DNA of 64,000 nt. Origin: Squalus acanthias. Taxonomy: Eukaryota. Shown here in pieces: positions 3,339 through 64,000 of this stretch (position 1 is its first letter; the number at the start of each line of letters is the position of its first letter). Position numbers and translations under genes: made by a program. The notes below the pieces were generated by a model. It ran no database searches. It was given only the letters and a program-made list of their open reading frames with translations, and had not been told where the DNA came from. The DNA is taken from the NCBI GenBank assembly GCA_030390025.1, contig JASTWF010000034.1, forward strand, positions 1-64,000. The letters run 5' to 3'.

Positions 3339-3752
3339 CCGCTCACTCTCTATTGGTCGGAAGCTCCCGTCAATCAGGCCGTGGGCCCTGGTCACGTGTC
3401 CCCGAGGAGATCACGTGCTCCGTCCAACTGACTCCGCTCGGTCCGGGGCCTCGCGGACTCTCAGGTTTTTCTATTTCTCTTTATTCTCTCCCTATCCACT
3501 CCTCCCCCCACCCCGCGCGATTCATCACCCAATCGGAGCGGAGAAAACTCACTTTGCGTCACCGATCGCGACTCTGTAACCGACACAAAGGCCTTTCCCC
3601 GGAATGCCTCGCGCCGACTCCGATCGGCAGGATCCGACCGCGCAGGCGCAGCTCCGAGTGGGGGAGGGTTTGGTGTCCTCTGGGCATGCGCCGTTGTTGC
3701 CCTTGGTGACCGGGAGGGGTCGCTGTGTCGCCGCTCCGTGTGCGCATGCGCC
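3339..3752 (+). promoter_or_regulatory. GC-rich promoter module, truncated on the left by the Penelope element
   Basis: ATTGG (CCAAT), two CACGTG E-boxes and GCGCATGCG (NRF1-like). Paralogous to 12290-12790 and 34940-35580. Confidence 0.6.
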
Positions 3753-5289: not shown

Positions 5290-5610
5290 CGAGGGAGTGA
5301 TTGCTGACAGGAAGAATGTTGGGTAGTCCTGCGCATGCGCACCTCCCTGGCAGATGAGGCGAAACACCGACTCGCCCCCACCTGAGCCGCGCACGTGTAC
5401 CAGATGTTGCGGCTCCGCATGCGCGTCCGATGTTCCAACCGCGGGGTTTTGTGCGCTGAGCATGCGCGTTGTGGACCGATCGGGACGGGCGATTGTGGAG
5501 CAGGAGGGAGAGCGCGGGGGCCATGAGCACATGGGCGGGACTCAGAGTCAACAGAGCGCTTTCTGGAGCGCCGGGGCTTGTGGGTATTGCAGCCGCCATT
5601 ACTGCTGATC
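5290..5610 (+). promoter_or_regulatory. ZNF-A CpG-rich promoter / first exon
   Basis: GCGCATGCGC at 5331 and further CATGCGC motifs (NRF1-like); GCCGCCATT at about 5592 (YY1-like). Confidence 0.6.
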
Positions 5611-12289: not shown

Positions 12290-13078
12290 TATTAAAACCT
12301 GAGCCAGTGTGTTGTGAGACAAAGAGCCTTGTGTCCAATAAGGGGAATAAAGGCCCACAGCCTCCCCTGGCCCCGGGCCCTGAACAAGGGACTGGAGAAC
12401 GATAGCAAAATACTGCGGATGCTGGAAATCCGAAATAACAACAGAAAACGCTGGAAAAACTCAGCAGGCCAGGCAGCATCCGTGGAGAAAGAAAGAGAGT
12501 TAACGTTTCAGGTCGATGACCTTTCGTCAGAAACTCGCTGCCCCGCGGATCAGACAATCAGCCGGCGCTAGTCCCGCCCCTCGGGCTCCCCGATTGGTTG
12601 GAGGACCCGCCGCCGGCTCGGTCCTCCAGCCCCTCCCCGCTCGCTCCCTATTGGTCGGAAGCTCCCGTCAATCAGGCCGGGGTCACGTGTTACTCGAGTG
12701 CATCCGCCAAACTGAAGAAGCTCCGCTCGGGGCCCGGATCCGCGGACTCTCAGGTTTGTGTTTCTCTTTATTCTCTCCCCCACTCTGATCTCGGGGTAAA
12801 CTCACTTTCCCTCACTGATTGCGGCGCTCAACCAACAGCGACTTGACAAAGAAAGCCTCCCGCGGCGGCCTACGGCTCCGGGGCCCAGTGCGAATGCGCA
12901 TGGGAGAATGATTGAGAAGTCCCAGGGTGTGTGTCCTGAGCATGCGCGGTGCGGACCCCGGCGGGGGGGGGGGGGGAGAGGGTCACGTGGGGCTGAGCAG
13001 GGGCGGGGCCTCCGGGAGGTGTGACCGGAAACGGCGGATGCAGAGCCCGCCCACTGGGCGCGTGTCAGAGCAGAGTGA
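12290..13078 (+). promoter_or_regulatory. GC-rich promoter module (third copy) and possible first exon
   Basis: Two ATTGG boxes, GC box, CACGTG, GCGCATG and CCGGAAA motifs. 12290-12790 is homologous to the reverse of 35210-35580. Confidence 0.6.
12400..12535 (-). mobile_element. Solo Penelope pseudo-LTR fragment with hammerhead core (12498-12535)
   Basis: Reverse complement of about 40-172. The paralogous site at about 35470 is empty; AGAA is duplicated at the junctions. Confidence 0.85.
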
Positions 13079-13102: not shown

Positions 13103-16100
13103 AGCCCGACCCTGACTCTCCACTGCACACTCGCCACCTTCATCACCCAGTGACCTAGCCCGACCCTGACTCTCCACTGCACACTCGCCTCCTTCATCAC
13201 CCAGTGACCTAGCCCGACCCTGACTCTCCACTGCACACTCGCCTCCTTCATCACCCAGTGACCTAGCCCGACCCTGACTCTCCACTGCACACTCGCCTCC
13301 TTCATCCCTCAGTGATCTAGCCCGACCCTGACTCTCCACTGCACACTCGCCTCCTTCATCCCTCAGTGACCTAGCCCGACCCTGACTCTCCACTGCACAC
13401 TCGCCTCCTTCATCACCCAGTGACCTAGCCCGACCCTGACTCTCCACTGCACACTCGCCTCCTTCATCCCTCAGTGACCCAACCGGACCCTGACTCTCCA
13501 CTGCACACTCGCCTCCTTCATCCCTCAGTGACCCAGCCCGACCCTGACTCTCCACTGCACACTCACCTCCTTCATCCCTCAGTGACCTAGCCCGACACTG
13601 ACTCTCCACTGCACACTCGCCTCCTTCATCCCTCAGTGACCTAGCCCGACCCTGACTCTCCACTGCACACTCGCCTCCTTCATCCCTCAGTGACCTAGCC
13701 CGACACTGACTCTCCACTGCACACTCGCCTCCTTCATCCCTCAGTGACCTTGCCCGACCCTGACTCTCCACTGCACACTCGCCTCCTTCATCCCTCAGTG
13801 ACCTAGCCCGACCCTGACTCTCCACTGCACACTCGCCTCCTTCATCCCACAGTGACCCAGCCTGACCCTGACTCTCCACTGCACACTCGCCTCCTTCATC
13901 CCTCAGTGACCTAGCCCGACCCTGACTCTCCACTGCACACTCGCCTCCTTCATCCCTCAGTGACCTAGCCCGACCCTGACTCTCCACTGCACACTCGCCT
14001 CCTTCATCCCTCAGTGACCTAGCCCGACCCTGACTCTCCACTGCACACTCGCCTCCTTCATCACCCAGTGACCCAACCCGACCCTGACTCTCCACTGCAC
14101 ACTCGCCTCCTTCATCCCTCAGTGACCCAGCCCGACCCTGACTCTCCACTGCACACTCGCCTCCTTCATCACCCAGTGACCGAGCCCGACCCTGACTCTC
14201 CACTGCACACTCGCCTCCTTCATCCCTCAGTGACCTAGCCCGACCCTGACTCTCCACTGCACACTCGCCTCCTTCATCCCTCAGAGACCTAGCCCGACCT
14301 TCACTCTCCACTGCACTCTCGCCTCCTTCATCCCTCAGAGACCTAGCCCGACCTTCACTCTCCACTGCACTCTCGCCTCCTTCATCCCTCAGTGACCTAG
14401 CCCGACCCTGACTCACCACTGCACACTCGCCTCCTTCATCCCTCAGTGACCTAGCTCTACCCTGACTCTCCACTGCACACTCGCCTCCTTCATCACCCAG
14501 TGACCGAGCCCGACCCTGACTCTCCACTGCACACTCGCCTCCTTCATCCCTCAGTGACCTAGCCCGACCCTGACCCTCCACTGCACACTCACCTCCTTCA
14601 TCCCTCAGTGACCTAGCCCAACCCTGACCCTCCACTGCACACTCACCTCCTTCATCCCTCAGTGACCTAGCCCGACCCTGACTCTCCACTGCACACTCGC
14701 CTCCTTCATCCCTCAGTGACCGAGCCCGACCCTGACTCTCCACTGCACACTTGCCTCCTTCATCCCTCAGTGACCTAGCCCTACCCTGACTCTCCACTGC
14801 ACACTCGCCTCCTTCATCCCTCAGTGACCGAGCCCGACCCTGACTCTCCACTGCACACTCGCCTCCTTCATCCCTCAGTGACCTAGCCCGACCCTGACCC
14901 TGACTCTCCACTGCACACTCGCCTCCTTCATCTCTCAGTGACCTAGCTCTACCCTGACTCTCCACTGCACACTCGCCTCCTTCATCCCTCAGTGACCTAG
15001 CCCGACCCTGACTCTCCACTGCACACTCGCCTCCTTCATCCCTCAGTGACCTAGCCCGACCCTGACTCTCCACTGCACACTCGCCTCCTTCATCCCTCAG
15101 TGACCTAGCCCGACCCTGACTCTCCACTGCACACTCGCCTCCTTCATCCCTCAGTGACCTAGCCCGACCCTGACTCTCCACTGCACACTCGCCTCCTTCA
15201 TCCCTCAGTGACCTAGCTCTACCCTGACTCTCCACTGCACACAAGCCTCCTTCATCCCTCAGTGACCTAGCCCGACCCTGACTCTCCACTGCACACTCGC
15301 CTCCTTCATCCCTCACTGACTAAGCCCGACCCTGACTCTCCAATGCACACTCGCCTCCTTCATCACTCAGTGACCTAGCCCGACCCTGACTCTCCACTGC
15401 ACAGTCGCCTCCTTCATCCTTCAGTGACCTAGCTCTACCCTGACTCTCCACTGCACACTCGGCTCCTTCATCCCTCAGTGACCTAGCCCGACCCTGATTC
15501 TCCACTGCACACTCGCCTCCTTCATCCCTCAGTGACCTAGCCCGACCCTGACTCTCCACTGCACACTCGCCTCCTTCATCCCTCAGTGACCTAGCCCGAC
15601 CCTGACTCTCCACTGCACACTCACCTCCTTCATCCCTCAGTGACCTAGCCCGACACTGACTCTCCACTGCACACTCGCCTCCTTCATCCCTCAGTGGCCG
15701 AGCCCTACCCTGTCTCTCCACTGCACACTCGCCTCCTTCATCCCTCAGTGACCGAGCCCGACCCTGACTCTCCACTGCACACTCGCCTCCTTCATCCCTG
15801 TGACCTAGCCTGACCCTGACTCTCCACTGCACACTCACCTCCTTCATCCCTCAGTGACCTAGCCCGACCCTGACTCTCCACTGCACACTCGCCTCCTTCA
15901 TCGCTCAGTGACCTAGCCCGACCCTGACTCTCCACTGCACACTCGCCTCCTTCATCCCTCAGTGACCTAGCCTGACCCTGACTCTCCACTGCACACTCGC
16001 CTCCTTCATCCCTCAGTGACCGAGCCCGACCCTGACTCTCCACTGCACACTCGCCTCCTTCATCCCTCAGTGACCTCGCCCGACCCTGACTCTCCACTGC

Positions 16101-17330
16101 ACACTCGCCTCCTTCATCCCTCAGTGACCTAGCCCGACCCTGACTCTCCACTGCACACTCGCCTCCTTCATCCCTCAGTGACCTAGCCTGACCCTGACTC
16201 TCCACTGCACACGCGCCTCCTTCATCCCTCAGTGACCTAGCCCGACCCTGACTCTCCACTGCACACTCGTCTCCTTCATCCCTCAGTGACCTTGTCCGAC
16301 CCTGACTCTCCACTGCACACTCGCCTCCTTCATCCCTCAGTGACCTCGCCCGACCCTGACTCTCCACTGCACACTCACCTCCTTCATCATTCAGTGACCT
16401 CGCCCTACCCTGACTCTCCACTGCACACTCGCCTCCTTCATCCCTCAGTGACCTAGTCCGACCCTGACTCTCCACTGCACACTCGCCTCCTTCATCCCTC
16501 AGTGACCTTGCCCAACCCTGACTCTCCACTGCACACTCGTCTCCTTCATCCCTCAGTGAACTAGCCCGACCCTGACTCTCCACTGCACACTCGCCTCCTT
16601 CATCCCTCAGTGATCTTGCCCTACCCTGACTCTCCACTGCACACTCGCCTCCTTCATCCCTCAGTGACCTCGCCCGACCCTGACTCTCCACTGCACACTC
16701 ATCTCCTTCATCGAGGGCAACACGGTGGCATAGTGGTTAGCACTGTTGCCTCACAGCGCCAGGGAATGGGTTCGAATCCGGCCTCGGCTGACTGACTTTG
16801 TGGAGTTTGCACATTCTCCCCGTGTCTGCGTGGGTTTCCTCCGGGTGCTCCGGTTTCCTCCCACAGTCCAAAAGATGTGCGGGTTAGGTTGATTTGGCTA
16901 TGATAAAAAATTGACCCTTAGTGTTAGGGGGATTAAATGCGTGGGGTTACGGGGATAGGGTGGGACATGTGCCGGTGCAGGCTCGATGGGCCGAAATGGC
17001 GTCTATCTGCATTGTGGAGATTCTGTGATTCTGTGATCCCTCAGTGACCCAGCCCAACCTGACTCTCCACTGCACACTCGCTCCTTCTTCCCTCAGTGAC
17101 CTAGCCCGACCCTGACTCTGCACTGCATACTCGCCTCCATCATCCCTCAGTGACCTAGCCCGACCCTGACTCTGCACTGCACACTTGCCTCCTTCATCCC
17201 TCAGTGACCTAGCCCGACCCTGACTCTGCACTGCACACTTGCCTCCTTCATCCCTCAGTGACCTCGCCCGACCCTGACTCTGCACTGCACACTTGCCTCC
17301 TTCATCCCTCAGTGACCTAGCCCGACCCTG
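13103..17330. repeat. 54-bp minisatellite, about 70 copies, interrupted by a SINE
   Basis: Unit CTAGCCCGACCCTGACTCTCCACTGCACACTCGCCTCCTTCATCCCTCAGTGAC. Confidence 0.97.
16714..17036 (+). mobile_element. V-SINE (HE1-like) inserted in the minisatellite
   Basis: Same family as 6964-7262; GATTCTGT tail repeats. Confidence 0.82.
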
Positions 17331-17381
17331 AATTTAACTACTTGAACTACTTTTGGTGCAGAGTGATGAGCCATTGTCCTT

Positions 17382-26824: not shown

Positions 26825-27463
26825 TCACTTGTGAACTCGCTGGTGTCTCAGCAGGTTCGATAATCGATTAAATCCCTTCTCACGCATGGAGCAGGTGAAT
26901 GACCTCTCCCCAGTGTGAATTCGCTGGTGTGTCAGAAGCTCGGATGAACGAGTGAATCCCTTTCCACACACGGAGCAGGAGAATGGCCTCTCCCCGGTGT
27001 GAACTCGCTGGTGTGTCAGCAGGTGGGATAAGTGAATGAATCCCTTCCCACACACTAAGCAAGTGAAGGGCCTCTCCCCAGTGTGAATTCGCTGGTGTAG
27101 TATGAGGTTGGCTGACTGCTTGAACCTCTTCCCACAGTGAGTGCAGCTGAATGGTCTCTCGTCAGTGTGAACTTGCTGATGTGTCTGCAGAATGGACGAG
27201 TGAGTGAATCCCTTCCCACACACGGAGCAGCTGAATGGCCTCTCTCCCGTGTGACTGCGTTCATGATTTTTCAGCTCAGATGGGTAATTGAATCCCTTTC
27301 CACACACACAACAGGTGAACAGCCTCTCCCCAGTGTGACTGCGTCGATGAATTTCCAGCTTGGATGGATTATTGAATCCCTTCCCACAGTCTCCACATTT
27401 CCAGTTTCTCCGTGGTGCAGGTGACCTTATGACCTTAAACAGACAAACATTTCTCCTCCACAT
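26825..27463 (-). CDS. ZNF-D: 7-finger C2H2 protein (last finger degenerate)
   Basis: Open 212-aa ORF with TGERPF linkers, ending HQRVHK*; shares the family 3' UTR. Confidence 0.7.
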
Positions 27464-27599
27464 TCAGAGACCGATGATATTCAGGTCCTGATGAATGGAG
27501 TGACTCTGTCAGATCTTGATGTGATGTTTGGTGTGAGTTTGCGGTGTGTAAATGCTGCCCTTCTCACAGCCTGTAAAAGGAGTTTACAAAAGCCATGAC

Positions 27600-28080
27600 T
27601 GAGAGTCCAGGATAGAAATTGACAAGATTCTCTCCTCCTGGTTCCTGGCCAAGGGGGCCGCGCATGCGCCCTGCTGCCCCCTGAGCCTGTCAAGATGGCG
27701 GCCGTTAACCCGGGCCTGTCACCGGGAGAAAGCCCCGCTCGGGGCAAACGCCCGGCCCGGAGGCTCTTGTTCGGGGCCTGAGGCCCACCCCGGGTGTTTG
27801 TGAAGCGGATAATGTGGAGTGTTTTAATAATGGGGCCTGGGGCCGCACTCGGGGTGTGTGCAGCCCGCGTCCCCCCGGGGTTTATTAACCCGCTCCCTGA
27901 GCTCTCTCACCTGATGTATCAGTGGCTGCTGCCACGGTCCGCGCATGCTCAGCTTACACTGCCCGGGTGATTGACGGGAGCTCCGGACCAATAGGAAGAG
28001 CGGGGCGGGACTGGAGGACCGAGCGGGCGGCGGGTCCTCCAACCAATGGTGGTGCAGCAAGGGGGCGGGGCCTGGTGAGC
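27600..28080 (-). promoter_or_regulatory. ZNF-D promoter
   Basis: GCGCATGCGC, AAGATGGCGGC (YY1), two CCAAT boxes and GC boxes; direct paralog of 62020-62525. Confidence 0.65.
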
Positions 28081-28345
28081 AGCTCAGGTGCGCTGGGGCC
28101 GATTGTGATGCGCTGTCCCCAGGTGAGAGCAGCTCAGTCAGCACAGAGCTGGGGCTGGAATCTGGGAGAGGGGCCACAGTCAGCGGGCCTGGCAAAGGGC
28201 CAGAGCGACAGCAGCTTCACTAAAGAAGATTATTTAAAGACAAATGCCTGCAGTTTTAGAGACAGCCCTGGTCACTGCAATAATTTCTTAAATGTTTAAT
28301 AATTAAATCAAAAGCATCAAAAAGGAAGAGAGTAGCAAAAGTAAA

Positions 28346-33962: not shown

Positions 33963-34409
33963 TGTAAAATGAGTTCAGAAAAGGGTCAGAGGCAAAATGT
34001 TGTTTAATTTTCCCCTTTCCCAGCCTAGGGGCAGTGAAGCTGATCTTCAGGCTCCAGCTGCTGCACAGGTTGGTTGAAAGGATCAGCAGTAATGGCGGCT
34101 GCAATACCCACAAGCCCCGGCGCTCCAGAAAGCGCTCTGTTGACTCTGAGTCCCGCCCATGTGCTCATGGCCCCCGCGCTCTCCCTCCTGCTCCACAATC
34201 GCCCGTCCCGATCGGTCCACAACGCGCATGCTCAGCGCACAAAACCCCGCGGTTGGAACATCGGGTGCGCATGCGGAGCTGCAACATCTGGTACGTGTGC
34301 GCGGCTCAGGTGGGGGCGAGTCAGTGTTTCGCCTCAGCCGCCAGGGAGGTGCGCATGCGCAGGACGACCCAACATTCTTCCTGTCAGCAATCACTCCCTC
34401 GTTTCTTTA

Positions 34410-34937: not shown

Positions 34938-35719
34938 CATGCGCACGCGGAACGGCGGTTTGGGCCGAGTCCGGCACAGCGCCCCCTCCCGGTCACCAAG
35001 GGTAATAACTGCGCATGCCCAGAGGACACCAAACCCCCTCCCCCACTCGGAGCTGCGTCTGCGCGGTCGGATCCTGTTGGACAGAGTCGGCGCGGGGCAT
35101 TCCGGGGAAAGGCCTTGGTGTCGGTTACAGAGTCGCGATCGGTGACGCAAAGTAACTTTTCTCCGCTCTGATTGGGTGGAGAATCACGCGGGGTGGGGGG
35201 GAGGGGTGGATCGGGAGAGAATAAAGAAAAATAGAAAAACCTGAGAGTCCGCGAGGCCCCGGACCGAGCGGAGTCAGTTGGACGGAGCACGTGATCTCCT
35301 CGGGGACACGTGACCCGGGCCCACGGCCTGATTGACGGGAGATTCCGACCAATAGGGAGCGAGCGGGGCGGTGCTGGAGGCGCGAGCCGGCGGCGGGTCC
35401 TCCAACCAATCGGGGAGCCCGAGGGGCGGGACTAGCACCGGCTGATTGTCTGATCCGCGGGGCAGCGAGTTTCTCCAGTCCCTTGTTCAGGGCCCGGGGC
35501 CAGGGGAGGCTGTGGACCCTTATTCCCCTTATTGGACACAAGGCTCTTTGTCTCACAACACACTGGCTCAGATTTTAAAAATAGGTTTACAGGAAATAGT
35601 GAATTGAAAATTGCAAAACTGAGATTGTTAGTTTTACACAGGATTACACAGGATATACGGCACAGAAACAGGCCATTCGGCCCAACCAGTCCATGCCGGC
35701 GTTTATGCTCCACTCGAGC

Positions 35720-40464: not shown

Positions 40465-41512
40465 CACATGCGAAGTGATACATTTTGGTTGAAAGAATGG
40501 GGAGAGGACATATAAACTAAATGGTACAATCCGAAAAGGGGTTGCACGAACAGAGTTTATGTGCACAAATCGTTGAAGGTGGCAGGGCAGGTTGAGAAAG
40601 CAGTTCAAAAGGCTTACGGGAGCCTGGCCTTCATGAATAGAGGTCATGATGCGGAGATGCCGGCGTTGGACTGGGGTGGACAAAAATGAGAAGTCGCACA
40701 ACACCAGGTTATAGTCCAACAGATTTATTTAAAATTACAAGCTTTCGGAGCTATCGCCCCTTCCTCAGGTAAAATTACAATGAGTGAATCTACAAAAGTT
40801 CACAGAATATAAACACTGCAGTTTCTGTGTTTATATTCTGTGAACTTTTGTAAATAAATCTGTTGGACTATAACCTGGTGTTGTGCGACTTCTCATTTTC
40901 ATGAATAGAGGTATACAGTACAAAAGTGTGGAAATTATGATGAACCTGTATAATACACTGGTTTGGCCACAACTGGAGTATTGTGTCCAATTCTGGGCAC
41001 CACACTTTAGAAAGGATGTGACGGCCTTAGAGAGGGCGCAGAAAAGATTTACAAGAATAATTGCAGGAAAGAGGGACTTCGGTTACGTTGATAGACTGGA
41101 GAAGCTGGGGTGGTTCTCCTTAGAGCAGAGAAGGTTGAGAGGAGATTTGATAGAGGTGTTCAAAATCACGAGGGTTCTGGACAGAGTAGATAGAGAGAAA
41201 CTGTTCCCATTGGCGGAAGGGTCGAGACCAGAGGACACAGATTTAAGGTGATTGGCAAAAGAATCAAAGGCGACATGAGGAAAAACTTTTTTATGCAGCG
41301 AGTGGTTCGGATCTGGAATGCACTGCCTGAAAGGGTGGTGGAGGCAGATTCAATCACGGCTTTCAAAAGGGAATTGGATGAGTACCTGAAGGAAAGAAAC
41401 TTGCAGGGCTACGGGGAAAGGGTGGGGGAGTGGGACTAGCTGAAGTGATCTTGCAGAGAGCCGGCACGGGCTCGACGGGCTGAATGGCCTCCTTCTGTGC
41501 TGTAACCATTCC
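40465..41512 (+). mobile_element. CR1 LINE 3' fragment
   Basis: PQLEYCVQFW and FFMQRVVRIWN motifs. Confidence 0.82.
40645..40897 (-). mobile_element. Short Penelope-type foldback element with a second-family hammerhead (40735-40772)
   Basis: 15-bp TSD TTCATGAATAGAGGT (40630-40644 and 40898-40912); 48-bp inverted repeat; minus-strand TTAC-CTGAGGA-A-GGGGC-GATA-GCTCC-GAAA-GCTT-GTAA. Confidence 0.8.
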
Positions 41513-49344: not shown

Positions 49345-49985
49345 AGATTCAAAGATGGGTTGAAGCTTTTCCATGCAAAAAGAATGATGCTGTAACAGTT
49401 GCAAAGTGTTTGTTAAAAGAAATCATACCAAGGTTTGGAATACCTATGCAACTTTCATGCGACAACGGATCACATTTTACTGGAATGATCATAAAGGAAC
49501 TATGTAAGGCTTTGCAGATTAATCAGCATTTCCACTGCAGTTATCATCCGCAATACTAGTAGAAAGATATAACGGAATGCTGAAGAATAAACTTTCTAAA
49601 CTTTGCAATGAAACTGGACTAAAATGGGTCGAACTGTTACCCTTAGCATTGATGGTAATGCGAGCAGCAACTAACAAGGCAACTGGACTGTCGCCACATG
49701 AGATTGTTATGGGACGACCCCAAAGGCTGCCATTCTCAGCACCCTTTACGGTTAAACAAATGGACATTCATAAAATGGATGAAAATATGCTAAACTATTG
49801 CATTGCATTAACTAGATGTATTTCCAGCTTTCACCAACAGGTAAAGGAAGCTCAAACGGAACTGGCCGAAGGAAAGTGCCATAATTTGGAACCAGGAGAT
49901 GACGTCTACATAAAGGTCTTTAAGAGGAAGAACGGTCTGCAGCCACGCTTTGAAGGGCCATATCAAGTACTCTTGACAACAAATT
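49345..49985 (+). pseudogene. pol: Integrase C-terminal half
   Basis: RWVEAFP, IIPRFGIP, CDNGSHF, YHPQ / frameshift / VERYNGMLK, GLSPHEIVMGRP, FEGPYQVLL. Confidence 0.88.
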
Positions 49986-51438
49986 TACGTTTTACCTACT
50001 AATCGGACTGATATGTATAGCCTGCCAAGGGAGAAGAAAAGAACCCCGAAAGAAACGAGAATTACATATGAACACCTTTTTGCATATGTCATATAAGTAC
50101 GCCAAAAAAAGTGGGATAAACGCCTGTTGGGTATGTAGCCATATTCCTACCCATGTGAAAGGAGGAATACCTCTGCGACTGATACCCTTGAACCTCACAG
50201 ATATGGCAGAATGGATAATTAATAAAAATCATACGAAACAGAAAGATACCACCCTATCCACCTTCGGGAAAGAATGGGAACAAAAGTGGTCTAGCCTAAG
50301 AAACGAGTTTAAGGGGGGAGGATATTCGTTAGAAAATTTTAAGGGATGGTACAAGCCGACGTATGATTATACGAAAGAACCTCCTTTTCTAGCCCTTACC
50401 AATACATCGGGAAAGGGCCGACCGATCGGGGATATATGCTGGGAACGCGATCTAGGACAGACTAAAGGGAACAGAGTTAATATGGGGAAAAGTCGTTGCA
50501 TACAAAAGTTCATTACGTACGAGGCAGGAAGTTCCATGGAAAGCTGGTGGTTCAATACTACCAGTTTGATGAATTTGACTAATAACAGACCATGGAATGG
50601 GACTAAACGATTGAATACTGACAATCAGATGGGTTTTACCGTTTTCCGCACCAACGCAAAACCTGATCAACCGGGACAGATAGTGACAGCCTATAACGGG
50701 ACGTACTTCATATGCGGTCACAGAGCATACCCTTGGCTACCAGAGAATTGGGCAGGATCATGCTATTTGGGGTATGTAGTACCATACATACACCCCATAA
50801 AGGAATTGAAAGACCACCATAAGCATAGCTGTAAGAAAAGAGAACTCCCCACATGGAAGATGTTAGTTGGAGCTATGTTTCCCCCTGCTGGAATAGCGTT
50901 TACTTCCCAAGAAATACTGTTACTGTCAGCATTAATCGAGGGGGTAGCTAATGACACGGTTAAATCCCTGAGGGAGGTGAGCGCTGAAATGGTAGCCCTG
51001 AGAACCGTCGCCCTACAAAATAGAATGGCACTAGATTACCTACTAGCTGCAAAGGGAGGTACATGTGCCATGATCGGAGCAGAATGCTGCACATATATCC
51101 CAGATAGCTCTGAAAATATAACTAACTTAGCGGACCATATTCAGAAACAGGTTGCCCTGCTCCATCAATCCAGGACCAAAGGCGGCTGGGTTGATTGGAT
51201 ATTAGGGGGATGGTTGGGATCAATGGGACAAGTATTATTGCATGGATTAGTAGTAGTAGTAGCCGCGATTGTATGTATCATTTTGGTTGTCACAATGATT
51301 AAGTGTTGTTGTGATAGGTTAGGCAAGGTAGTCATACCTGAAGTAAGTATGATGATACAGAAAGAAATAAATGACGAAGAAGAAAAGTATGGTCCCTTCG
51401 GGGAGGAACTGAGGCGATTGAATAAAATACAATTTTAA
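49981..51438 (+). CDS. env: Gamma-type envelope glycoprotein, open frame; first ATG at 50068
   Basis: Signal-like FYLLIGLICIAC upstream in frame, CWVC (CXXC), CKKR at the SU/TM junction, ISD LQNRMALDYLLAAKGG, CX6CC and a TM helix. Confidence 0.9.
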   Translation, partial: KFTFYLLIGLICIACQGRRKEPRKKRELHMNTFLHMSYKYAKKSGINACWVCSHIPTHVKGGIPLRLIPLNLTDMAEWIINKNHTKQKDTTLSTFGKEWEQKWSSLRNEFKGGGYSLENFKGWYKPTYDYTKEPPFLALTNTSGKGRPIGDICWERDLGQTKGNRVNMGKSRCIQKFITYEAGSSMESWWFNTTSLMNLTNNRPWNGTKRLNTDNQMGFTVFRTNAKPDQPGQIVTAYNGTYFICGHRAYPWLPENWAGSCYLGYVVPYIHPIKELKDHHKHSCKKRELPTWKMLVGAMFPPAGIAFTSQEILLLSALIEGVANDTVKSLREVSAEMVALRTVALQNRMALDYLLAAKGGTCAMIGAECCTYIPDSSENITNLADHIQKQVALLHQSRTKGGWVDWILGGWLGSMGQVLLHGLVVVVAAIVCIILVVTMIKCCCDRLGKVVIPEVSMMIQKEINDEEEKYGPFGEELRRLNKIQF

Positions 51439-61030: not shown

Positions 61031-61990
61031 TCACTTGTGAACTCGCTGGTGTCTCAGTAGGTGAGATGATCGACTGAATCCCTTCCCACACATGGAGCAG
61101 GTGAATATCCTCTCCCCAGTGTGAACACGCTGGTGCGTTCGAAGATTGGATGCATGAGTGAATCCCTTCCCACATACAGAGCAGGTAAACGGCCTCTCCC
61201 CGGTGTGAACTCGCTGGTGCGTTCGAAGATTGGATGCATGAGTGAATCCCTTCTCACATACAGAGCAGGTAAACGGCCTCTCCCCAGTGTGAACTCGCTG
61301 GTGTTGAATGAGGTGAGACGACTGCCTGAAGCTCTTCTCGCAGTGAGTGCAACTGAACGGTCTCTCGTCAGTGTGAACAAGCTGATGTTCAATAAAATCT
61401 GCAGAGATTTTAAAGCAGTTCCCACAGTCAGAGCATTTAAAAGGTCTCTCGTCAGTGTGAACTCGGTGGTGTAACTGGAGGCTGGACAGCAGAGCGAATC
61501 CCATCCCACACTCGGAGCAGGTGAACGGCCTCTCCCCGGTGTGACTGCGTCGATGAATTTCCAGGTGGGATGGGGAACTGAATCCCTTCCCACAGTCCCC
61601 ACATTTCCACGGTTTCTCCGTGGTGCGGGTGTCCTTGTGTCTCTCCAGGTTGGACGATCAGTTGAAGCCTCGTCCACACACAGAACACGTGTACGGTTTC
61701 TCCCCGCTGTGAATGGTGCGATGTTTTTTCAGGCTGTGTAACTGGTTAAAGCTCTTTCCACAGTCAGTGCACTGGAACACTCTCACTCGGGTGTGGGTGT
61801 CTCGGTGCTTTTCCAGTCACACTGATGTTTGAAATCTTTTCCCACAGACAGAACAGACAAACATTTCTCCTTCCACATTCAAAGGCCGATGATATTCAGG
61901 TCCTGATGAATGGAGTGACTCTGTCAGATCTTGATGTGATGTTTGGTTTGAGTTTGCGGTGTGTAAATGCTGCCCTTCTCACAGCCTGTA
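61031..61990 (-). CDS. ZNF-G: 7 intact C2H2 fingers from ACG 61621 to stop 61031, preceded by stop-containing fingers; start uncertain
   Basis: In-frame TGAs at about 61820 and 61660-61658; open frame from there to HQRVHK*. Confidence 0.65.
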
Positions 61991-62233
61991 AAAGGAGTTT
62001 CCAAAAGCCATGACTGTGAGTCCAGGATAGAAATTGACAAGATTCTCTCCTCCTGGTTCCTGGCCAAGGGGGCCGCGCATGCGCCCTGCTGCCCCCTGAG
62101 CCTGTCAAGATGGCGGCCGTTAACCCGGGCCTGTCACCGGGAGAAAGCCCCGCAGCTGCCGCCCCGCTCGGGGCAAACGCCCGGCCCGGAGGCTCTTGTT
62201 CGGGGCCTGAGGCCCACCCCGGGTGTTTGAGAA

Positions 62234-62678
62234 GCGGATAATGTGGAGTGTTTTAATAATGGGGCCTGGGGCCGCACTCGGGGTGTGTGCAGCCCGCGTC
62301 CCCCCGGGGTTTATTAACCCGCTCCCTGAGCTCTCTCACCTGATGTGTCAGCGGCTGCTGCCAAGGTCCGCGCATGCTCAGCTCACCTTCTGTTGTTCAG
62401 GTTTAAAGGTCAAGCCCCGCCCCTCACACACTGCGATTGGTTGGAGGACCCGCCGCCCGCTCGGTCCTCCAGACCCGCCCCTCTCTTCCTATTGGTCCGG
62501 AGCTCCCGTCAATCACCCGGGCAGTGTGAGCTGAGCATGCGCGGACCTTGGCAGCAGCCGCTGACACATCAGGTGAGAGAGCTCAGGGAGCGGGTTAATA
62601 AACCGCGGGGGGACGCGGGCTGCACACACCCCGAGTGCGGCCCCAGGCCCCATTATTAAAACACTCCACATTATCCGC
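62234..62678. repeat. 153-bp inverted repeat (62234-62386 / 62526-62678) around a CCAAT/GC-box promoter core
   Basis: Arms differ at one position by eye; the 139-bp spacer has two ATTGG boxes and GC boxes. Confidence 0.93.
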
Positions 62679-62749
62679 CCGCCGCTTCCCGGTTTCTCCC
62701 GATTCGCTCAGCAAAGGGGCCCCGCGCCAAACTCCGGGACAGACAGGAA

Positions 62750-63282
62750 GTCAGGGAGCGTCTGTAAATGGAGGAGAAATGGTGAATGGTCAGGGAGCGT
62801 CTGTAAATGGAGGAGAAATGGAGACTGGTCAGGGAGCGTCTGTAAATGGAGGAGAAATGGAGACTGGTCAGGGAGCGTCTGTAAATGGAGGAGAAATGGA
62901 GGCTGGTCAGGGAGCGTCTGTAAATGGAGGAGAAATGGTGAATGGTCAGGGAGTGTCTGTAAATGGAGGAGAAATGGAGACTGGTCAGGGAGCGTCTGTA
63001 AATGGAGGAGAAATGGAGGCTGGTCAGGGAGCGTCTGTAAATGGAGGAGAAATGGAGGCTGGTCAGGGAGTGTCTGTAAATGGAGGAGAAATGGAGACTG
63101 GTCAGGGAGCGTCTGTAAATGGAGGAGAACTGGAGACTGGTCAGGGAGCGTCTGTAAATGGAGGAGAAATGGAGACTGGTCAGGGAGCGTCTGTAAATGG
63201 AGGAGAAATGGAGGCTGGTCAGGGAGCGTCTGTAAATGGAGGAGAAATGGTGATTGCTCAGGGAGCGTCTGTAAATGGAGGA
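62750..63282. repeat. 39-bp minisatellite, about 14 copies
   Basis: Unit GGTCAGGGAGCGTCTGTAAATGGAGGAGAAATGGAGACT. Confidence 0.95.
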
Positions 63283-63504
63283 TAAATTATTTATTATTTT
63301 GCGGCTTGGTTTGTGTGAAACCTACATCACAAATTTCAATTAGACTCTTTTCCTTGCCCCAGCTCCTGTAAATACTGGCTGGAAAGGGGCCGGACTCTCA
63401 GGAGGCTCCACACCGCTGGCTGATCGTGTGTCAGTGATCTCCATTCAGATTAATGTGCATCTGCTGTGTGTGTGTTTAACAAAGTGCCCGAAGCAGTTCA
63501 TAAG

Positions 63505-64000
63505 GTGGGGAACCAGTGAGTGTAGAACTGAACCCATTCAGATTCAGCACCTTCAGGGGAGGAGAGGGAGGGGAACCAGTGAGTGTAGAACTGAATCCAT
63601 TCAGAGTCAGCACCTTCAGGCGAGGAGAGGGAGGGGAACCAGTGAGTGTAGAACTGAATCCATTCAGAGTCAGCACCTTCAGGCGAGGAGAGGGAGGGGA
63701 ACCAGTGAGTGTAGAACTGAACCCATTCAGATTCAGCACCTTCAGGGGAGGAGAGAGAGGAGAACCAGTGAGTGTAGAACTGAATCCATTCAGAGTCAGC
63801 ACCTTCAGGGGAGAAGAGGGAGGGGAACCAGTGAGTGTAGAACTGAATCCATTCAGAGTCAGCACCTTCAGGCGAGGAGAGGGAGGTGAACCAGTGAGTG
63901 TAGAACTGAATCCATTCAGAGTCAGCACCTTCAGGCGAGGAGAGGGAGGGGAACCAGTGAGTGTAGAACTGAATCCATTCAGAGTCAGCACCTTCAGGGG
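63505..64000. repeat. 63-bp minisatellite, about 8 copies, running off the window end
   Basis: GGAACCAGTGAGTGTAGAACTGAATCCATTCAGAGTCAGCACCTTCAGG... with period 63. Confidence 0.95.

Follow-up and report, generated by a model that had tools for sequence, protein, structure and literature searches.

The inverted repeat upstream of the C2H2 zinc-finger gene ZNF-G (62234..62678 of the window, the whole 64,000-nucleotide stretch of Squalus acanthias DNA analysed here) appears to be a CpG-island promoter core with two faces, each of which adjoins its own copy of the 5' module shared by a very large C2H2 family. The arrangement has probably arisen by passive inversion of the spacer together with homogenisation of the arms, either through an inter-strand template switch or through recombination between the arms; an imperfect arm-core-arm cassette is probably old, the arms of ZNF-G having been made alike recently. 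The repeat itself, the opposite orientation of its core in the related locus ZNF-D, and the occurrence of each type of inner join in copies that have diverged are observed directly, in an evidence base made up of the window and 4 of 21 listed public sequencing runs (X3, X8, X15, and X17).

ZNF-G lies on the minus strand of repeat-rich vertebrate DNA, the window holding seven C2H2 finger arrays, LINE reverse-transcriptase fragments, a retroviral remnant, and minisatellites. Its finger exon (61031..61985) contains nine C2H2 patterns and is preceded by an acceptor-like AG that ends at 61986. The leader carries two in-frame TGA codons, a 208-aa open stretch spans 61031-61657, and the first in-frame ATG falls some 50 codons inside that stretch, so that there may be little at this locus to regulate. 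Between finger exon and repeat is the gene-side flank X (61986..62233, minus strand), a CpG-rich candidate intron 1 with a full NRF1 palindrome at 62075-62084 and a YY1-like motif at 62107, which is 98% alike in ZNF-G and ZNF-D (27575-27804) apart from a 14-bp indel. The NRF1 palindrome and YY1/ATG-like motif of X (62075-62116; also at 27660-27701, 40038, and 54708) point away from the finger exon, and by the rule of motif orientation X may start an overlapping opposite-strand transcript that passes through arm and core.

The left arm (62234..62386, minus strand), which is the family 5' module, and the right arm (62526..62678, plus strand), its mirror copy, are inverted relative to one another and identical at 152 of 153 positions, the sole mismatch being a substitution at arm position 74 (62307/62605). 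The 139-bp spacer that separates them consists of a 24-bp end, S (62387..62410, minus strand), and the core proper (62411..62525), in which the motifs run GC - CCAAT - GC - GC - CCAAT, with CCAAT at 62440 and 62495 and GC boxes on the minus strand at 62422, 62458, and 62480. Each arm has an NRF1-like GCGCATG, at 62370 on the plus strand and 62542 on the minus strand, that of the left arm being part of an NRF1-like motif at 62369-62381. The first-pass annotation had described 153-bp inverted arms with about one mismatch and a GCGCATG apiece, enclosing a 139-bp core with two CCAAT boxes and GC boxes, and all of this is borne out. CCAAT, GC, NRF1, and YY1 motifs and a CpG island are all present in the ZNF-G promoter region, where CpG observed/expected is 0.75 and GC content 0.65. 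Among the 53 inverted pairs no more than 2 kb apart in the window, 25 of which were listed, the ZNF-G arms are the top-scoring pair, and the fold of the cassette has a z of -32, with equal stability in 0 of 100 shuffles. The cruciform that had been proposed is unlikely with a 139-bp loop.

Beyond the right arm lies the far flank Z (62679..62749), which is unmatched elsewhere in the window. Its opening, and with it the outer join of the right arm, is a CCGC/CCGCTTC echo of the X-side join, short and therefore weak as switch-point homology. No target-site duplication surrounds the cassette, and X and Z are dissimilar; the idea that Z descends from a sequence shared with X, or with the far flank of ZNF-D, was rejected because its scores are those of chance (500/1000 and 427/1000 shuffles, respectively, were equally good). 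An Rfam search of 61900-63500 gave 0 matches, and exact-motif scans gave 0 matches in viral contigs and 0 in prokaryote genomes. The sole exact-motif match, metagenome contig L001, was rejected as a 21-base chance match with nothing else alike.

Several other repeats accompany these parts. A repeat scan places a 39-bp minisatellite of 13.8 copies (62750..63287) immediately behind Z, and minisatellites of 54, 39, and 63 bp (13103-17331, 62750-63287, and 63507-63998) all stand directly behind promoter-like modules, possibly within first introns. The end of X (62202-62229) and the outer arm (62261-62289) form a diverged tandem pair of about 59 bases. Nine contigs of run X8 turn back at 62333 into letters resembling the arm, which suggests that the X-end/outer-arm unit has turned into a minisatellite in other copies. 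A second arm-spacer-arm structure lies inside a LINE fragment at 40683-40899, with 52-bp arms 98% alike and a 113-bp spacer containing a nested inverted repeat; it is a probable fold-back insertion, and arm-spacer-arm forms are thus not rare in the window. Within the retroviral remnant (49523-51438), a fragment of the integrase C terminus precedes an open frame of 494 aa that is envelope-like (Pfam TLV_coat). A 910-aa open frame at 3-2961 has a weak reverse-transcriptase match and then a GIY-YIG match, a frame that we take to resemble Penelope-type elements.

What the arms are can be read from a motif of 13 bases at their inner end, which has nine matches in the window against 0.01 expected (0 of 100 shuffles): one upstream of each of the seven finger arrays, one at 12936, and one in the ZNF-G right arm. 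In both ZNF-G arms a CAG/GTGAG donor stands 47 bases from the inner end, between 62340 and 62339 on the left, where it closes a 47-nt candidate exon 1 (62386-62340, minus strand), and after 62572 on the right; a GTGAG-type start is present at both inner faces in ZNF-D and ZNF-G alike. A single contig of run X17 has a joint from 61897, in the finger exon, to 62339, with 20 letters on its short side, that fits the arm donor within a base. Family motif, donor position, and this joint point to the arm being, most likely, exon 1 of the family together with the start of its intron rather than a recombination site. Records 6 and 7 of run X15 cover X and the acceptor unspliced, contrary to a simple intron. 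Both X15 and X17 are RNA by guess, and contigs give neither strand nor start.

The two faces of the spacer differ. The TATA-like TTTAAA of S (62407-62402) is 33 bases from the nearer CCAAT, and S has no counterpart in ZNF-D; the flip has put a TATA-like face before ZNF-G in place of a TATA-less one. By bin arithmetic, cover of S is about 21 in X15 and about 0 in X17, and Z has none in X15 and little in X17, while the DNA runs continue. These figures hint, weakly at best, at normal use of the TATA-less face; contig depth cannot rank the parts. The earlier suggestion of a bidirectional promoter is plausible from the motifs and from the candidate exon 1 and donor on each face, but the RNA hint concerns one face only. 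If both faces work, a switch of the bacterial on/off type is impossible, because both enter the same exon and donor.

When ZNF-G 62411-62678 is reversed and aligned with ZNF-D 27805-28074, the two are 93.7% alike over 270 columns. The core of ZNF-D does therefore lie in the opposite orientation relative to its gene, as had been claimed, but a counterpart exists for only 115 of the 139 spacer bases: S is absent, and divergence affects some 14 bases beyond the distal CCAAT. The 5' module of ZNF-D (27438..28047, minus strand) is 610 bp long and comprises exon start, X, arm, and core, the core beginning at 27958 in opposite orientation; its arm (27805-27957, minus strand) matches the ZNF-G arm at 149 of 153 positions and carries the left-arm letter at the sole ZNF-G arm mismatch. 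The two loci are 95-98% alike in this module and 79% alike in their finger arrays, so that the paralogy proposed for them holds as close kinship for the module only. They have the gene-side flank alone in common, and their outer flanks differ. The ZNF-D exon is without leader fingers, the promoter module having been swapped onto another array (27438-28047 versus 61851-62525).

ZNF-D had been called single-armed. It does have one full arm, but its far flank (28075..28142, plus strand) resembles the inner arm, and appears to be a decayed arm-like piece with a CAG/GTGAG donor at 48 nt, compared to 47 nt in the arm. Alignment of this flank to the ZNF-G inner arm scores 38 (1/1000 shuffles as high), and to ZNF-D's own arm 31 (19/1000 as high, of moderate significance). 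Of 4262 window tiles, only those of the three arms and of the paralog A and E 5' ends rank above it.

Further copies of the core bear on which orientation is older. A third copy (12570..12674, plus strand, 85%) is oriented with its ATTGG side facing the family motif at 12936-12948, a fourth (35329..35433, minus strand, 82%) with that side facing the motif of gene E at 34223-34235, and a partial fifth of 38 bp (3339..3376, plus strand) with it facing the motif of gene A at 5456-5468. With ZNF-D, the ATTGG face is thus directed to the nearest family motif in 4/4 other core copies of the window; three of these are independent, because 35329 and 3339 adjoin a duplicate gene pair (A and E, 95% alike). 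In ZNF-G the ATTGG face is turned from the gene and meets the right arm instead. Because all four other copies hold the opposite orientation, that of ZNF-G is, on this comparison, probably the derived form, and the earlier claim that the core has flipped at least once is supported. Arm-like flanks were absent beside the cores at 12570 and 35329 (193-712/1000 shuffles as good). The flanks of the other cores (12675-12950, 35050-35328, and 3377-3650) have an E-box CACGTG and a splice-donor-like site where ZNF-D and ZNF-G have the arm. By its sequence context, the core is a module combined with several flanks. Genes A and E themselves belong to a large inverted segmental duplication (4939-6036/33655-34752 and 7561-8675/31336-32450; 95-99% alike, about 23-28 kb apart).

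The public runs extend these comparisons to other copies. Of the 21 listed, 20 consist of short-word contigs, which cannot link both sides of a 153-bp arm, and one of paired Illumina reads from another organism; contigs were placed on 61990-62745 at 90% likeness. Part of this interval is contained in 20 runs from 13 studies, with a best word share of 0.81; in seven further organisms the share is 0.64-0.66, against 0.40 for the remaining window, ZNF-D included. Between 1956 and 5999 records were placed per run, and the cassette parts therefore belong to large families. Among 32 listed of 18,008 pieces, the X-arm join is found in X8 record 29 (15 differences in 183), core and arm are joined in X8 record 32 as well as in X3 records 23 and 24, and the S-core join occurs in X3 record 22. 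The arm-S-core join occurs in X8 record 30, a single contig of depth 13.6 with 10/119 differences (8%). A word share of 0.66 corresponds to about 1.3% divergence for the closest copies in the organism of record 30, and record 30, at 8%, is therefore an older paralogue. Since the arms of ZNF-G differ at 1/153 positions and record 30 at 10/119 (Fisher p = 0.0014, from one contig), the ZNF-G arms appear much younger than the join of arm and far face. Run X3 contains, at low depth, the rare letters of ZNF-G at 62230, 62433, and 62482. Z is covered in X3, X8, and X17, though not in X15, and among the 32 listed of 18,008 pieces none bridges right arm and Z and none spans the cassette. S and Z both stand at high depth in X3, so that this cassette is probably not the only one of its kind, and the order seen in ZNF-G could be a common or subfamily norm. 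At arm position 12 a possibly derived letter is shared by both arms and ZNF-D; the other letter makes up nearly all the depth at 62245, where contigs fit either arm.

From these observations we infer an ancestral order, a mechanism, and promoter activity for either face. The ancestral order would have been gene-X-arm-core-S-arm'-Z, with arm' an older diverged homologue of the arm; that arm' existed is argued by the far flank of ZNF-D, which keeps a decayed arm with its donor at 48 rather than 47 nt. In the lineage of ZNF-G the spacer would then have been inverted and arm' overwritten from the gene-side arm. A single inter-strand template switch could have accomplished both, the nascent strand leaving where the left arm meets the spacer, copying spacer and arm backwards for 292 bases, and returning at the CCGC microhomology. 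Alternatively, crossover and conversion between the arms would give the same product, indistinguishable here from that of a template switch. Either route would be a passive mutation, needing no recombinase and perhaps recurring on rare occasions, and its outcome would be that ZNF-G faces the TATA-like end of the core with exon 1 unchanged.

Events of this kind have precedents. An inverted repeat with an inverted spacer accounts for 23% of 794 human-chimp template-switch events (PMC5453318), and in yeast the perfection of arms together with inversion of the spacer does occur, in 1/10 spacer inversions (PMC8604942). The longest copied tract reported is 318 bp, with tracts of 97-180 bp outside repeats (bioRxiv 2021.11.26.470150). 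At 292 bases, the tract at ZNF-G comes close to the reported maximum and is long for a local switch, which counts against spacer inversion with arm homogenisation, as does the fact that the listed contigs show joins singly, a phased X-arm-core-S-arm'-Z copy not being among them. The four arm differences between ZNF-G and ZNF-D were rejected as a means of dating the event: X15 record 7 has the ZNF-G letters at the three that it covers, and because an independent ZNF-G-like contig shares these letters, the differences are probably ZNF-D's own. The contrast of 1/153 with 4/153 arm differences is in any case not significant (p = 0.37).

Two alternatives, each of them unlikely and to a similar degree, would dispense with a single past inversion. 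The arms may recombine often, with the result that ZNF-G and sister loci hold the two orientations as segregating or somatically arising forms, a TATA-like face being swapped for a TATA-less one in front of an unchanged exon 1 and expression being altered. Such toggling would account for arms that still match at 152/153 despite the age of the arm-S join, and for a ZNF-D module 97-98% like that of ZNF-G yet reversed, with both isomers within about 2-3% divergence; an arm of 153 bp falls within the 50-250 bp given as the minimum for eukaryotic homologous recombination in PMC8755829, and the flip/flop region of yeast (PMC9731477) is a precedent for homogenised arms and repeated re-inversion. Against it, a single orientation is known at the ZNF-G locus, where the arms already differ by one substitution, and the same exon and donor stand behind both faces; the two leader stops and late ATG leave perhaps little to regulate. 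There was also no strand-changing joint among 15 of 46 listed, in contigs that could not reveal one. The other possibility is that nothing flipped locally, ZNF-D and ZNF-G being mosaics of paralogues in which the shared arm served as crossover block for ectopic recombination or conversion, an exchange that put X next to opposite faces of the core in different copies. Module exchange does happen here, as the 610-bp 5' module of ZNF-D (95-98%, against 79% for the finger array) attests, every part of the cassette is covered by thousands of contigs, and the core is present with three other flanks in the window. A mosaic nevertheless needs an extra step to give arms that match at 152/153 up to the X-side boundary, a likeness that one local copy event explains at once; microhomology with the X-side join also marks the end of the right arm.

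That the second arm was instead made de novo, by a one-off inverted duplication (a 3-1-2-4 template switch) at a place where no homologue stood, is very improbable. The geometry fits event 3-1-2-4 as described in PMC5453318, and short microhomology is found at both joins, but the supposedly new join of arm, S, and far face is present at 8% divergence in another organism (X8 record 30), and ZNF-D has an arm-like far flank. The simple template-switch duplication offered by the first-pass annotation is thus less apt than the perfecting of an older imperfect repeat. Even less credence attaches to an assembly artefact, whether a foldback chimera or a spacer misoriented between near-identical arms. 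The best run holds 0.81 of the sampled words, and a record bridging right arm and Z is absent among the 32 listed of 18,008, as an artefact would have it; a foldback would, however, mirror X past the right arm, where Z is unrelated (500/1000 shuffles) and the spacer single. Both inner joins occur in public runs, the rare ZNF-G letters at 62230, 62433, and 62482 recur in X3, and a window without N that resolves a 3.6-kb 54-bp satellite suggests assembly from long reads. Least credible of all is an enzyme-driven programmed switch, or a small DNA transposon with the arms as terminal repeats, with which the ZNF-G locus shares the arm-core-arm outline only. No recombinase or transposase family was found in 83 of the 91 window ORFs of at least 120 aa (eight satellite frames were left out), and RAG signals gave 1 and 5 window matches at up to 3 mismatches, none of them within 10 kb of the arms. 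A transposon is further opposed by the lack of a target-site duplication and by the arm being joined to X in ZNF-D, ZNF-G, and a diverged copy, a join whose own age shows in X8 record 29 (15 differences in 183). The arm motif is moreover the 5' end of all seven genes, and the phase-variation cassette that had been envisaged finds no support, given the absence of a recombinase family from those 83/91 ORFs and arms that are ordinary gene 5' ends.

Promoters inverted by site-specific recombinases are familiar from bacteria, with fimS and FimB/FimE in E. coli and Hin/hix in Salmonella. ZNF-G is like them in having a promoter between inverted repeats and two orientations among related sequences, and unlike them in that the window has no recombinase gene, the arms are far longer and are transcribed 5' sequence, and both faces are promoter-like. 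Template-switch spacer inversion (the Ripley model; events 1-3-4-2 and 3-1-2-4 of Loytynoja and Goldman 2017, PMC5453318; yeast, PMC8604942) matches ZNF-G in its near-perfect repeat, inverted spacer, lack of a recombinase, and short switch-point homology. The scale is different, with arms of 153 bp and a spacer of 139 bp compared to yeast template-switch arms of at most 16 bp and spacers of 2-5 bp (PMC8604942), and a tract of 292 bp compared to a human maximum of 318 bp (bioRxiv 2021.11.26.470150); the ZNF-G spacer is also a whole promoter core, and its comparator is a paralogue, unlike the orthologues of template-switch studies. The FF flip/flop region of Saccharomyces chromosome XIV (PMC9731477) likewise has gene-family arms and no dedicated enzyme, and its arms are more alike than their age implies, as those of ZNF-G may also be, but there the arms are 4 kb, the segment is 24 kb, and re-inversion has recurred across strains, whereas ZNF-G has 153-bp arms and one known orientation. 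Vertebrate bidirectional CpG-island promoters (CCAAT/NF-Y, GC box/Sp1, NRF1, and YY1; PMC4730256) agree with ZNF-G in motif set, CpG richness, and an outward first exon, in ZNF-G a candidate one, on each side; in ZNF-G, however, the two candidate first exons are homologous copies, and no partner gene lies rightwards before the window ends. By analogy, the ZNF-G cassette would act like a template-switch spacer inversion, and like the yeast flip/flop if recurrent, rather than like a recombinase-driven switch.

A search by listings found no description of a vertebrate invertible promoter core, or of a cassette of the ZNF-G type, in the open-access literature. On the best reading, the locus would be an unusually large and clean case of a known type of mutation reversing a whole promoter core, and ZNF-G and ZNF-D would be a sign of 5' module shuffling in an expanding shark zinc-finger family. 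Its importance would be much greater if both orientations existed at one locus and the faces differed in output. In zebrafish embryos, zinc-finger genes form an early class with TATA 'sharp' promoters and a later class with TATA-less 'broad' ones, as mentioned in PMC10547256 in a passage that draws no link to sharks. It is doubtful, though conceivable, that the shark family holds many passively invertible two-faced promoters, in which homogenised exon-1 arms allow TATA-like and TATA-less faces to be swapped with the transcript unchanged and both orientations segregate at single loci. If true, this would amount to a heritable, recombinase-free shift of genes between expression classes.
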